A DNA stretch of 64,000 bases, taken from the NCBI GenBank assembly GCA_038314665.1, contig GCA_038314665.1_3677.1, one strand, 5' to 3'. The number at the start of each line of letters is the position of its first letter. Position 1 is the first letter of the stretch. This DNA comes from a phage. The translations under genes and the position numbers were made by a program. The notes beneath the pieces were generated by a model. That model made no database searches. It had not been told where the DNA came from and was given only the letters and a program-made list of their open reading frames with translations. Shown in pieces: positions 41,813-46,131 of this stretch.

Positions 41813-42076
41813 TCAGAAACCCTCTAAAAAGCTCTTGTAGAAAACAATCTCAGTATCCACACCAGTCACGATCTTGTCGTTCCTGATTTCGTCGGTAAGA
41901 TAGGTGTCAAAACGCAGAACCTGTGTGGTGTTGTCACACATCCACTCAGCTGTGACCATTGCGAAAATCTTAGCATCTTCATTGTCTGGTGTGAATGTTA
42001 CCACCTCACCGCACTTAAACTTTTCGATAGGTTGAGTGTTGGCTTTCGGTTCTGCGATAGTGATTTTTGTGGTCAT
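41813..42076 (-). CDS. small paralogue family A, member 3
   Basis: 87 aa; CGEVVTF and TGVDTEIVFY segments alignable with neighbours. Confidence 0.5.
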   Translation of the reverse strand: MTTKITIAEPKANTQPIEKFKCGEVVTFTPDNEDAKIFAMVTAEWMCDNTTQVLRFDTYLTDEIRNDKIVTGVDTEIVFYKSFLEGF

Positions 42077-42339
42077 TATTCTCCTCCTTCTTTTGAATAG
42101 CTTGTCTCTCCAAGGATGGTAATTTTGGTGTCAAGCTCTGTAACTTTCATGTTTGGCGGCAGATCGTACAACTCATTATTTTCTAAATCGAAACCCCACA
42201 CACAATGTTCTCCTGTTTTGACAATCATAACTATGTTTTGAATGCCGTCTCCGTCGCAACTTACCACGGTCCCACACGGAAAACTGTCTGCACGCTTTTT
42301 GTTCTTCACCTTAGAATTGAATACAATGCTAGTAGCCAT
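42076..42339 (-). CDS. small paralogue family A, member 2
   Basis: 87 aa; MAT..F.S..K.KK N-terminus, CGTVV and VTELDTKITILGE shared with member 1. Confidence 0.5.
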   Translation of the reverse strand: MATSIVFNSKVKNKKRADSFPCGTVVSCDGDGIQNIVMIVKTGEHCVWGFDLENNELYDLPPNMKVTELDTKITILGETSYSKEGGE

Positions 42340-42602
42340 TATTGTTCCTCCACCATAACTTCGCCAAGAATTTCTATGCAGGCATCCATTTCTGTAACAA
42401 CCGAACTGTGAGGTAGTTCTACAAACACCTTTCTGAACAGGTCAAATACCCCAACATATATGTTTGCAGGATGTGATTTTACAACAAGTGCTGTATTCAC
42501 ATCCCCAAGTTCATCAACAAACATCACCACAGTGCCTGGAGCTACTGAGGACAGATACTTCTTAGTTTTACGGTTTGATGCAAATTTTAACTCTGTTGCC
42601 AT
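42339..42602 (-). CDS. small paralogue family A, member 1
   Basis: 87 aa; PGTVV and VTEMDACIEILGE; 1-nt overlap with member 2. Confidence 0.5.
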   Translation of the reverse strand: MATELKFASNRKTKKYLSSVAPGTVVMFVDELGDVNTALVVKSHPANIYVGVFDLFRKVFVELPHSSVVTEMDACIEILGEVMVEEQ

Positions 42603-42617
42603 AAATAACCTCCTCTC

Positions 42618-44099
42618 TTACTTAGCGTACTCGATTAATTCCACAGTTTTCCCAAAGCTCGGGATATAATTTTTATTATACCCATCAGTGAGGACCCATA
42701 GAGTATCGTACTTTTTCCACTTGTTGTCAATAGCCTTTTGTTCAAAGTTATGCTCAAAGTATAGGTCGGTCAGGACGATGACATCTTTTGCATTCGGTAT
42801 GTTGGCATCCAGATACTCGAACACGCAAGCAGCTGTTGTTCCCCATGTTGAGTGGACCTCATAGTTGATTATCTCGTCTATGTTGCCACGAGTGTATACT
42901 TTAACCTCTCCAACCTCAGTTGACCAACAGAACATTGTAACCTTAAACTCTTTATACAGATTGCACAATCCGGTGATTTCATTGAACATTTTCTTTAAAG
43001 TTCTTTGAGAGATCGAGCCAGAAACGTCTAAAGCCACCACAATATCTATAGTGTTTTCCGGATTACGACCAGGAACAATAACGTGCTGGTTCTTGTTTAT
43101 AGCCCCAACTTTTCGCATTGTGCTGGTCAAAGACCCAGATCGGCGACCAGGTTTTCTGTAGGTCAGTTCGGCCTTTCTTTTAGACAACATGCGTTGCTTA
43201 ATGATGTCTATATAATTGATTACGGGCTTACCTCTGTTCTTGACAAACTCGCGCACCGCCTCAGGGCAACGACCTCCGGAAGCTTGCATTGCTGCCTCCA
43301 GCATGTCACCAGAGTCCTGCATGGCCTGATCTTTATCAGATTGGCTGATTACAGGTTGTGGCTGATCATACCCCATAGCCTTTCCAAGATTATCACTGGT
43401 GCCACCATTCCCACTCATGTGATCATCGGTTTGTCGCTTATCGCCTTGAGAGTTCTCACCTTTACCGCTCTTACTTTTACCGTTATTCTGATCTCTTTGC
43501 TTATCAAGAACTGCATAGACGTTCTCAGCAATCCATCCATGAAACTTCATGTCGCAGTAGCAGCTGGCTAAGAAGCCAAAAGGCTTACCTTTCACGAACG
43601 TAGTGCTTTTCCCCTTCGGGAAGAAAACACAAGGAGGTTTGCTAAAGTCAACCACAAGGCCTGTGTTGATAACGTGATCACAAGCAATATTGAACAGTTC
43701 CGGCTCAAAGCTTTTACCACGGACCAGGTGATCACAGATAATATGCCCCACCTCATGTGACAAAAGAAAGGCCACCTCTTTCACAGATTTGGGGGAATAG
43801 AAAACCTCAGCCATCTCAAACTGCTCGTCAGTTAGAGAAGCCTTAAGAATAGCCCTGCGTTCGTCAGCCAACCCCACAATGAACTCAGGACTGTAATAGA
43901 TGCGTTTATGGTCGGTTGCCATGGTGGAGCACCATGTGTGGTTTTCTACGAACTGCAACCCTGACAGTAGTGTGCCATAAAAAGGCAGCTTTTCAAGAAG
44001 ATACATACGTGCAGCTTGCAACATTCTCAGGGCATCATCTTTCTGTGAGGTAATGATTTCTGAACTTCTGCTATCCATTAAAACTCCAGAAGGGGCCAT
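42618..44099 (-). CDS. VWA-domain protein with N-terminal HExxH metallopeptidase-like domain
   Basis: 493 aa; HEVGH zinc-binding motif near N-terminus, long Gly/Ser/Asp/Lys-rich low-complexity linker, C-terminal MIDAS motif DVSGS. Confidence 0.65.
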   Translation of the reverse strand: MAPSGVLMDSRSSEIITSQKDDALRMLQAARMYLLEKLPFYGTLLSGLQFVENHTWCSTMATDHKRIYYSPEFIVGLADERRAILKASLTDEQFEMAEVFYSPKSVKEVAFLLSHEVGHIICDHLVRGKSFEPELFNIACDHVINTGLVVDFSKPPCVFFPKGKSTTFVKGKPFGFLASCYCDMKFHGWIAENVYAVLDKQRDQNNGKSKSGKGENSQGDKRQTDDHMSGNGGTSDNLGKAMGYDQPQPVISQSDKDQAMQDSGDMLEAAMQASGGRCPEAVREFVKNRGKPVINYIDIIKQRMLSKRKAELTYRKPGRRSGSLTSTMRKVGAINKNQHVIVPGRNPENTIDIVVALDVSGSISQRTLKKMFNEITGLCNLYKEFKVTMFCWSTEVGEVKVYTRGNIDEIINYEVHSTWGTTAACVFEYLDANIPNAKDVIVLTDLYFEHNFEQKAIDNKWKKYDTLWVLTDGYNKNYIPSFGKTVELIEYAK

Positions 44100-44111
44100 T
44101 GGCCCCTGTCA

Positions 44112-45155
44112 TTATTTAACGTGTTTGAAAATACCTGCCAACTCGGTCATTGTCATGCGAGTGGTCTTCATAAGGTCTGTCATAGCTTTCTCCATAATTG
44201 GAGATACTACCATAAAGTTTCCTTTAGTGAAACCTTTATTCCAGTCGGTCACCAACAGGGGTTTAAGTCCAGCTCCAAGACGTTCACCAGTTAAAGCACA
44301 GCATTTGCGAATATACGAACTCTTAAATTGGCTGAACGACAGATCAACTTTCATACCTGCATCGTAGAACGTTTGACAATAGAAAGTGTAAGCCTTAGCA
44401 ATCTCAACATCATCAGGCAGTGCAGGAACCTCTTCTGCAATCCCCTCTTCGACCTCCTGAGGCTCTTTTTCCTCTTCAGAGTTCTGTTCTTCAACTTCTT
44501 CTGTCACAGTCTCGTTTACGATGTCTGAAATGTGTTTGTTGGCTGCACGATCAGCCATGAAATTTTTAAAGTCCTGCATTGGTGACATATCTTCTTCCTC
44601 TTCGTCAAAGAGTGCCAGTTTATCCTCTTCCGTTCCATATTGCAAGATGAAATCTTCAAAAGTATAATCACCTTTCAATTTCTCCATACGCTCTTCGCTC
44701 AGGTGGAGCATCATCTGCTGGACAATTTTTCGATCAGTTTCGTCTTTAATCAAGACTGCAGTCTTTTTATCTACCAGACAGTCCTTTAGAGAGTTGCATC
44801 TCAATCCCACCACACAACAGTTATCAACCGCATAAGGACCTTCATCATCTATCCGCTCCAGAGATGGGTAGAAAGGATTTCCCAGCCCGTTTTCATCTGT
44901 GTGCATGTCAAAAGGTATAAGGGTATAGTCGCATACTCCATCTCCTAAAAGTTTTTTACCAAATAGGAGGTATTCTTCCCATGACAGGTCGAACTCTATA
45001 TCTCGTTTCCGTGCATTATTCTGTTTGCGTCTATATTTTTTGAGCAGGCGCTCTAACTCTTCTGGTGTATAATATTTTTCAAGATTCATGAGTTGTCTCT
45101 CGTGCTCTGTAAGTGAAGAAATCGTATCAATTGTCTCAACAGATGTCAACATCAA
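44112..45155 (-). CDS. hypothetical protein with internally duplicated degenerate HNH/AP2-like motif and poly-acidic linker
   Basis: 347 aa; N-terminal DLSWEEY...PSLERID...YAVDNCCVV...CN..K echoed near the C-terminus (DLSFSQF...PLLVTDWNKGFTKGNFMVV); central EEEED/EEVEEQNSEEEKE run. Confidence 0.4.
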   Translation of the reverse strand: MMLTSVETIDTISSLTEHERQLMNLEKYYTPEELERLLKKYRRKQNNARKRDIEFDLSWEEYLLFGKKLLGDGVCDYTLIPFDMHTDENGLGNPFYPSLERIDDEGPYAVDNCCVVGLRCNSLKDCLVDKKTAVLIKDETDRKIVQQMMLHLSEERMEKLKGDYTFEDFILQYGTEEDKLALFDEEEEDMSPMQDFKNFMADRAANKHISDIVNETVTEEVEEQNSEEEKEPQEVEEGIAEEVPALPDDVEIAKAYTFYCQTFYDAGMKVDLSFSQFKSSYIRKCCALTGERLGAGLKPLLVTDWNKGFTKGNFMVVSPIMEKAMTDLMKTTRMTMTELAGIFKHVK

Positions 45156-45162
45156 AAATGTG

Positions 45163-45191
45163 TTGACTTTACTCTAACTCCATAATATAGT
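45163..45191 (+). promoter_or_regulatory. sigma70-like promoter (TTGACT-N17-TATAGT) in divergent intergenic region
   Basis: -35 TTGACT 45163-45168, 17-nt spacer, -10 TATAGT 45186-45191, upstream of 45232 ORF. Confidence 0.5.
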
Positions 45192-45231: not shown

Positions 45232-46131
45232 ATGGCAAATCTTAACAGTTTTAGTACGCGGTGGAAACAGGACATAACAACCAATCTTTCAGCTGGGGAC
45301 ATCCTTTCTGCAATTTACGAGGCTTTAGATGATAAAGCTACTTCAAAAGCGGTTTGTACCAACCCACTAATTCCTGTAGTGATGAAGGTTATTGAGCGTA
45401 GATTGGTATCTGGGTCTGATAAGTGGACATATTTAGATAATGAAGGACACACCTATTCCAATGGGTATGTCGATATAAAAGTAGAATACGCGGTATCATA
45501 CCGCCGAAGCGGTTCTGTGACTTTCAACTTTTCTGGAGGTTTCAGATCTCTGGCAACTTCACCTTTTGTTTCCTCAGAAGAGAAGTATGAGCTGCCATTT
45601 CTTTGGATGATGGCTAACGCGACAGGAAAAACCCCCGTTAGCATCCGAGTAAAATACAATTACAACGGATCTAGTAAGATCTATGCCGAAAGTGTCTCAG
45701 CAAGTTTTTATTTTGTGATGGGGGATGGAATCCTCAAACATATAAAGATGTGCGATATGCATGATGTTATAAATGAAGTGACTGATAAGAATGTTCTAGT
45801 GAAAGACCTCAACAATTTTTATACACCCGGAGACTATTACGTCAACCGTCCACTGTGCATCTTTAATGCCGCACACCCTCTAGGTGAGTATTTGATCGCC
45901 AATAGCGATATTGCCAATAACCGCTTCGAGGTAGCAAGAGTTCAGAATGAGGTATTGACATCTTGCAAGAGCGGTGATAAGTTTACCGAAGAAGAGATGG
46001 GTGTTTTAGAAATGATGGGATATAAGTGTAGCCTTTGGGTAGATGAGGTGTTTAATGATTGCATCTATGGACAGGATATTCACCCACTAAAGAAGTATAC
46101 TGATTCCAGTTTAATTTACGCGGAGATTTGA
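45232..46131 (+). CDS. hypothetical early protein
   Basis: 299-aa ORF with AGGAG RBS. Confidence 0.5.
   Translation: MANLNSFSTRWKQDITTNLSAGDILSAIYEALDDKATSKAVCTNPLIPVVMKVIERRLVSGSDKWTYLDNEGHTYSNGYVDIKVEYAVSYRRSGSVTFNFSGGFRSLATSPFVSSEEKYELPFLWMMANATGKTPVSIRVKYNYNGSSKIYAESVSASFYFVMGDGILKHIKMCDMHDVINEVTDKNVLVKDLNNFYTPGDYYVNRPLCIFNAAHPLGEYLIANSDIANNRFEVARVQNEVLTSCKSGDKFTEEEMGVLEMMGYKCSLWVDEVFNDCIYGQDIHPLKKYTDSSLIYAEI

Follow-up and report, generated by a model that had tools for sequence, protein, structure and literature searches.

PacI is a bacterial DNA restriction enzyme, a homodimer of 142-residue chains, that is active without the histidine canonical for His-Me finger nucleases: at that point its sequence reads VD-R93-SD, a tyrosine of the omega loop takes the role of the histidine, serving as base or nucleophile, and an aspartate and an asparagine bind the metal (PMC5714182, PMC4081073). 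We take Y100 to be the catalytic tyrosine because it is the only one in the omega loop. PacI (PDB 3ldy/3m7k) is placed in group 20 of the His-Me finger classification of Jablonska et al. 2017, according to which a group is inactive only if the histidine and the equivalent tyrosine have both been lost (PMC5714182). A second point of reference is Srd of phage T4 (NP_049634, 248 amino acids; PHROGs 1400 and 4592), which is reported, in papers that relate the work of Qi et al. 2015, to bind RNase E on its catalytic N-terminal half and to make host mRNA decay faster (PMC13232886, PMC4980113, PMC7430671). Here we describe a gene on the minus strand of a 64,000-nucleotide stretch of phage DNA (contig GCA_038314665.1_3677.1; hereafter the window, meaning the whole stretch analyzed), whose product, the Srd-like protein, has PacI as its closest solved relative and T4 Srd as its only studied one. 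The protein very probably holds two copies of the PacI-type domain in one chain, one with an intact set of active-site residues and one degenerate. We give a probability of about one half to the reading that it belongs to the Srd superfamily and takes part in early host takeover, with a live and a degenerate PacI-type copy that would, by analogy with T4 Srd, serve host shut-off.

The window belongs to a Vequintavirus, an rV5-like coliphage, as the 10 kb surrounding the gene share 97–98% DNA identity with members of this genus such as phiWec193 and the BASEL phage Bas58. An earlier note on this DNA, made from the sequence alone, had reported a gene at 44112 to 45155, and the maximal open reading frame (ORF) with these limits does exist on the minus strand, with 347 codons and TTG as its initiator. 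Translation most likely starts further in, at the ATG at 45089, because a sigma-70 promoter lies within the first 22 codons, homologues in other genera begin at the position of M23 of the maximal ORF, and the relatives in GenBank are annotated as proteins of 325 amino acids; the first 22 codons are probably untranslated. The coding sequence and its promoter are laid out as follows.

44112 to 45089, minus strand: coding sequence, 325 amino acids plus stop, beginning MNLEKYY; most likely start; first gene of a leftward early operon.
45121 to 45149, minus strand: near-consensus sigma-70-type promoter, TTGACA-17-TACGAT, the -10 box extended by TG; hexamers matched at 10 of 12 positions; located within codons 1–22 of the maximal ORF.

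Residues are numbered below from the ATG at 45089, and the corresponding numbers in the maximal ORF are 22 higher.

Scans against Pfam and NCBIfam returned nothing meaningful for the whole protein, for each domain, for nine distant relatives or for T4 Srd, and a search of the PDB sequences with the single sequence gave no match. A profile of the family matches PacI among the PDB sequences with an E-value of 0.0013, and hhalign aligns the N-terminal domain with residues 30–123 of PacI (94.5%, E 8e-8). In an AlphaFold2 model, which was built on 123 sequences and has a mean predicted local distance difference test score (pLDDT) of 89, this domain is predicted to adopt a beta-beta-alpha-metal fold that can be superposed on PacI. 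In PHROGs this domain, and no other part of the protein, matches the T4 Srd families 4592 (7.9e-15) and 1400 (2.3e-9), the latter match ending at position 156 of the 251 of the profile, as well as the 'endonuclease' families 3322 and 1035. The matching viral models in BFVD are HNH proteins from giant viruses and Srd-type 'anti-sigma factors', among the latter the Srd proteins of Acinetobacter phages; His-Me finger group 20 has the same mix (PMC5714182). The resemblance to the HNH_3/AP2 type that the earlier note had seen finds no support, as no Pfam model matches even at E ≤ 10. The Srd-like protein has in common with canonical HNH endonucleases (PF01844 HNH and PF13392 HNH_3; McrA, Gme HNH, Cas9 HNH) the pattern [D/E]-[H/R] ... 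N ... N-x-x-K, but it differs from them in lacking a Pfam match, the general-base histidine and the CxxC zinc knuckles. The N-terminal part of the protein contains three features.

44769 to 45089, minus strand: N-terminal PacI-type His-Me (beta-beta-alpha-metal) domain of Srd type, residues 1–107 (ORF 23–129).
44784 to 44858, minus strand: active-site-like motif ERIDDEGPYAVDNCCVVGLRCNSLK, with E78, R79, Y86, N90, N99 and K102 (ORF E100, R101, Y108, N112, N121 and K124).
44589 to 44768, minus strand: helical extension packed after the N domain, residues 108–167.

The six residues of the motif align with D92, R93, Y100, N104, N113 and K116 of PacI, in the order given, with glutamate replacing aspartate as the putative metal ligand. 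Their conservation is close to complete across 128 family sequences that share only ~20–25% identity overall: E or D, R, Y and the first N are found in 100%, the second N in 97% (with H in 3%), and K in 97%. The motif occurs once in 135 of 153 family sequences, and it is present in PacI as well as in T4 Srd, where it extends from E64 to R88 as ER-x-D...GY...N...N-x-x-K/R within a homologous N domain. The N copy thereby shows the combination described for PacI, an absent histidine together with an omega-loop tyrosine and with Asp/Glu and Asn as metal ligands; the C-terminal copy does not. The helical extension that follows is predicted to form helices at residues 117–129, 132–139, 144–151 and 154–167, with a pLDDT of 93–96 up to about residue 160, and it is conserved within the Vequintavirinae.

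The earlier note had seen arginine in place of the catalytic histidine in both halves of the protein and had concluded that catalysis was lost. The replacement is real in the N copy, in which R79 (ORF R101) is invariant in 128 of 128 sequences, and wrong for the C copy, which has valine at this position. We do not regard the arginine as a sign of decay, because it belongs to a variant of the active site that is strictly conserved and that works in PacI, and a loss of catalysis does not fit a copy that keeps the PacI-type Tyr, Glu/Asp, Asn, Asn and Lys at 97–100%; only the C copy looks dead. The N copy is potentially active because the tyrosine is retained and the classification calls a group inactive only when both residues are gone. 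Judging from this conservation, we lean toward a site in the N copy that is functional on nucleic acid.

That the two ends of the protein are copies of one domain, with the fold described, we regard as close to certain. The relationship does not emerge from a single sequence, as a Smith-Waterman comparison of the N and C halves scored 23, against 25.8 ± 4.3 for shuffles, which is not above background, and hhalign with 16 close homologues aligned 14 columns with an E-value of 0.055, which is suggestive only. For a deeper comparison, 128 N-domains and 128 C-domains were cut from the family found by exhaustive profile search, and hhalign of the two alignments gave a probability of 97.8% (E 7.1e-13, 80 aligned columns) in the register that the earlier note had proposed for its internal repeat; the controls, a reversed C alignment and 20 column-shuffled ones, had scores of 7–13 and E-values of at least 0.05. 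A hidden Markov model (HMM) made from the C-domains alone matches the N-domains of remote members of the family. One and the same domain of T4 Srd is matched by the N-HMM (5.6e-22) and by the C-HMM (1.3e-10), and in BLASTP this single T4 Srd domain aligns with both halves of the query (4e-7 over 143 columns, and 1e-3). The structure prediction that the note had suggested as a check points the same way: the order of elements in the AlphaFold2 model is equal in both halves, namely helix, strand, helix, hairpin and beta-beta-alpha. The arrangement it had pictured, two nuclease-like repeats on either side of an acidic segment, is upheld, the repeats being homologous modules of HNH type (beta-beta-alpha-metal) and the segment disordered. 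Four relatives hold two intact motifs in tandem, which hints that a homodimeric enzyme first became a tandem duplicate and that one of the two copies later died.

44115 to 44423, minus strand: C-terminal degenerate copy of the PacI-type domain, residues 223–325; supported by hhalign of N against C; pLDDT 93–98.

This copy keeps C264, D282 and N291, and it carries the replacements E to L, R to V, Y to F, N to E and K to M, with the loss of five of the six active-site residues. From these replacements it looks catalytically dead. No direct match of the C copy to PacI was obtained, and it is linked to PacI only through the N copy. Its identity across genera is 44–50%, and the C copy is as conserved as the N copy; since it is conserved this strongly despite its lost active site, it would appear to have a function of its own.

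44424 to 44588, minus strand: acidic, disordered, hypervariable linker, residues 168–222; pLDDT 44–72.

The linker lies in a 78-residue stretch (residues 147–224) that has 26 D/E against 5 K/R and a net charge of about -21. An acidic run of about 40 residues had been described here; the segment exists, and to call it dominated by Glu and Asp is a slight overstatement, as the richest 40-residue window has 17 D/E (~43%). It is the sole variable part of the protein and its least conserved region: among Vequintaviruses whose N and C domains are 97–100% identical to the query, the linkers are 55–59% identical. At the level of DNA the linker identity is 51–84%, with in-frame indels of 3, 12 and 9 nucleotides in GAA/GAG-rich sequence, and the flanking DNA is 98–100% identical. 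In the wider family the inter-domain segment varies in length from 32 to 129 residues, and its net charge in 132 members has a median of 0, with 53% neutral or basic and the query the most acidic of all. This fits a flexible tether whose acidity is local to the lineage, to judge by these sequences, rather than a conserved DNA mimic.

In the reading that we favor, the N copy would bind a phosphodiester with one metal ion and would probably cleave it, and the C copy would stand in for the second subunit of the PacI homodimer, providing binding or partner contacts without catalysis. With a non-catalytic second subunit the protein would act asymmetrically, as a nickase, a single-site cutter or a binder. 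The tether would only set reach and solubility, or would transiently shield the basic nucleic-acid surface. In the cell, by analogy with T4 Srd, the most likely role would be early host shut-off through a faster decay of host nucleic acid, mRNA foremost; an action by way of mRNA decay that depends on RNase E is a tentative extension of this analogy, and we consider it somewhat doubtful. We infer that the protein is catalytic, that it forms a pseudo-dimer, what its substrate is and that it is linked to RNase E. The comparison with PacI is between a bacterial restriction enzyme made of two identical chains and a phage early gene whose single chain joins an intact and a degenerate copy and has a helical extension and an acidic tether besides. 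T4 Srd and the Srd-like gene have in common that both are early genes in host-takeover regions, and they bear the same 'anti-sigma factor' label in databases.

Several observations weigh against this reading. The homology to T4 Srd is confined to one domain at ~24% identity, RNase E binding is described for T4 Srd only, and the transfer of this function by analogy is weak. The C-terminal half of T4 Srd differs in being basic; it matches neither the N-HMM nor the C-HMM, and with no detectable second copy and no acidic linker the overall architecture is unlike that of the Srd-like protein. The two structural zinc sites of PacI are absent, the Srd-like protein lacking the zinc-binding Cys/His ligands: of those in CxxC...CxxC only C53 is conserved, and among the positions aligned with C63, C66, C109 and C112 of PacI the others are T/S, V and A. 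With the zinc sites gone, the geometry of the active site rests on a predicted model. The pseudo-dimer, in turn, must be put conditionally because the relative arrangement of the domains is uncertain (predicted template modeling score, pTM, 0.57). The conserved 'catalytic' residues could instead bind phosphate, metal or a partner protein.

This last point leads to a protein that is a pure adaptor, as the textbooks currently see T4 Srd: with a catalytically silent fold, it would use the conserved residues as a surface for docking on RNase E, at the catalytic N-terminal half, or on some other host enzyme, and would change the activity of its partner. Such a role would agree with T4 Srd, which is reported to act through RNase E and to bind its N-terminal half, and whose N domain is homologous to the one found here (PMC13232886, PMC4980113, PMC7430671). 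It would also agree with the loss of the zinc sites of PacI, and there is precedent for His-Me domains recruited to non-catalytic roles, such as Smad MH1 and Enpp (PMC5714182). A surface for protein binding is, however, unlikely to keep exactly the metal, base and phosphate residues of PacI at 97–100% across sequences of such low overall identity. Moreover, the inactive His-Me groups have lost both His and Tyr, whereas the tyrosine is invariant here, and related proteins keep two intact motifs in tandem. We therefore hold the pure adaptor to be unlikely. A role as an anti-sigma factor or sigma decoy, with transcription redirected through binding to host RNA polymerase or to sigma-70/sigma-S, has in its favor that this is an early gene and that relatives are annotated as 'anti-sigma factor', the label used in most GenBank records. 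However, the label derives from the T4 Srd record, which speaks of a 'postulated decoy of sigma factors RpoD and RpoS' and so gives a postulate and not a result. No Pfam model of a sigma-70 region or anti-sigma factor matches at E ≤ 10, nor does any NCBIfam model; the fold is that of a His-Me nuclease, and all the experiments cited for Srd deal with RNase E. We give this role very little credence.

The remaining two explanations seem to us equally improbable. In one, the gene is selfish and mobile and encodes a free-standing homing endonuclease of HNH type; in its favor are the label 'HNH endonuclease' of PHROG 3118 and of several records, and one NCBI record in which the protein is called a type II restriction endonuclease. 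Yet the gene is syntenic across genera, at the same divergent-promoter junction beside a DUF2201 gene, and it is found in essentially all relatives rather than sporadically. A scan with both domain HMMs found no paralogue of either domain in the whole window. The protein lacks the canonical histidine (Arg in 128 of 128) and has no NUMOD or AP2 DNA-binding modules, and its domains are 97–100% identical among phages that differ elsewhere. The other is the proposal of the earlier note itself, in which a dead DNA-binding scaffold and a DNA-mimicking acidic stretch would together inhibit a host restriction or defense nuclease. The charge of the linker, with runs such as EEEED and EEVEE, makes the idea understandable, as does expression of the gene early, and the fast divergence of the linker within a species could reflect an arms race. 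The acidic DNA mimics T7 Ocr and ArdA likewise combine dense Asp/Glu with early expression. Known DNA mimics are folded proteins with fixed charge arrays, whereas the acidic part here is a poorly conserved, predicted disordered tether between two folded nuclease-type domains. The linker thus lacks the conserved, structured acidic array that defines DNA-mimic inhibitors, and with acidity not being a family trait and its length so variable, the mimic finds no support. The divergence, lying in GAA/GAG-rich DNA with in-frame indels, is what replication slippage in a low-complexity tether would be expected to produce. The N copy does not look dead, and nothing was found that points to a host DNA-targeting enzyme as the target: PADLOC gave only a spurious weak match to Cas12a in the helical/linker region (E 0.0015), Pfam gave no match to a known family including DNA mimics, and the PDB searches gave only PacI.

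The family itself is already in databases, loosely labeled as HNH; what would be new, on the strength of the alignments, is the placement in the PacI-type, tyrosine-dependent branch of His-Me nucleases and the architecture of a live and a dead copy. In the literature searched, Srd is treated as a protein without a known fold, and we found neither a statement linking Srd to HNH, His-Me or PacI nor an account of an intact and a degenerate copy combined in Srd-type proteins. Placing the Srd domain in the PacI branch makes the mechanism of Srd testable by point mutants of the tyrosine, the Glu-Arg pair and the asparagine. It would also supersede the misleading labels 'anti-sigma factor', 'anti-termination protein', 'fucosyltransferase' and 'HNH homing endonuclease' in hundreds of phage genomes, and the pairing of the two copies would show how a nuclease that worked as a homodimer can become an asymmetric protein of one chain. 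A bolder generalization, which we think improbable, is that Srd-type proteins including T4 Srd are active PacI-type endonucleases, tyrosine-dependent and histidine-less, and not mere adaptors of RNase E. If this were true, their cuts would leave 5'-monophosphate ends, as those of HNH nucleases do, and these are the entry sites preferred by the 5'-end-dependent RNase E. The stimulation of RNase E by Srd would then be at least partly catalytic, and the Vequintaviruses, with their two-domain form, would have an asymmetric version in which a live and a dead copy share one chain.

The Srd-like protein matches PHROG 3118 over its full length (E 2.5e-110), and full-length orthologues were found in 201 phage records, across the genera of the Vequintavirinae and beyond. 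An exhaustive profile search for the family returned 3261 representative clusters at E < 1e-3, of which 168 reach E < 1e-10, with most members 230–310 amino acids long and matched across both halves. Candidates for a split gene, with proteins consisting of the N or the C part only, were considered and dropped; the one case checked was a fragment at the end of a contig. Counterparts in GenBank are labeled 'anti-sigma factor', 'anti-termination protein', 'HNH endonuclease', 'alpha 1-3 fucosyltransferase' or 'hypothetical'. The gene is also carried, at 91–97% identity, by 16 unannotated 'Campylobacter phage' records (MG065682, MG065662, MG065655 and others) whose host is given as C. jejuni. In megablast these records match the E. 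coli Vequintavirus region, and their host assignment may be wrong or the records contaminated.

The Srd-like gene is, on the evidence of its promoter sequences, an early gene transcribed by host RNA polymerase, because a sigma-70 promoter stands upstream of it here and, independently, upstream of its orthologue in Proteus phage Mydo. The latter phage belongs to a different genus, its protein is ~39% identical, and its TTGACA-17-GATAAT lies 39 nucleotides upstream of the start codon. In more distant phages the homologue is located among small early-type ORFs. The literature searched held no temporal expression data for the Vequintavirinae. In the window, the promoter at 45121 to 45149 on the minus strand stands back to back with one on the plus strand at 45163 to 45191. 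The two -35 boxes, TTGACA and TTGACT, form an inverted repeat with an 8-bp stem, GTCAACA...TGTTGAC, at 45145–45167, which may be an operator for a common regulator. At the other end of the gene there is a further candidate control element.

44091 to 44107, no strand assigned: perfect palindromic G+C-rich hairpin AGGGGCCATTGGCCCCT (AGGGGCC-ATT-GGCCCCT, 7-bp stem), on the 3' side of the Srd-like gene, 5 nucleotides from its stop codon.

This hairpin covers, and so sequesters, the ATG (44099) of the downstream gene, and it may be an attenuator or an element of translational control. The downstream gene, at 42618–44099 on the minus strand, adjoins the Srd-like gene and encodes a DUF2201_N metallopeptidase domain and a DUF2201 VWA-like domain. 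The order of the two genes is kept in Mydovirus and in one metagenomic relative, and the usual partner of DUF2201, a MoxR-type AAA+ ATPase, is found in the divergently transcribed operon according to the annotation of Bas58.

Four palindromic hexamers, AGTACT, CGATCG, CTCGAG and GACGTC, are absent from the window, with 12–19 copies of each expected from its base composition. Their avoidance was considered as the footprint of a site-specific nuclease encoded by the phage and was set aside, as it is indistinguishable from ordinary restriction-site avoidance. On the other side of the divergent promoters, at 45232–46131 on the plus strand, a 299-residue ORF without a Pfam match at E ≤ 0.01 is called a 'putative alpha 1-3 fucosyltransferase' in many relatives. 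In some records this label is attached to the Srd-like gene instead, and the annotation looks unreliable. Further along the minus strand, three consecutive ORFs of 87 amino acids (41813–42076, 42076–42339 and 42339–42602) have overlapping stop and start codons. No Pfam model matches any of them, relatives list them as hypothetical, and they are diverged paralogues of one another, with 18–28% identity and the common motifs G..VV, FD and VTE.DT.I.

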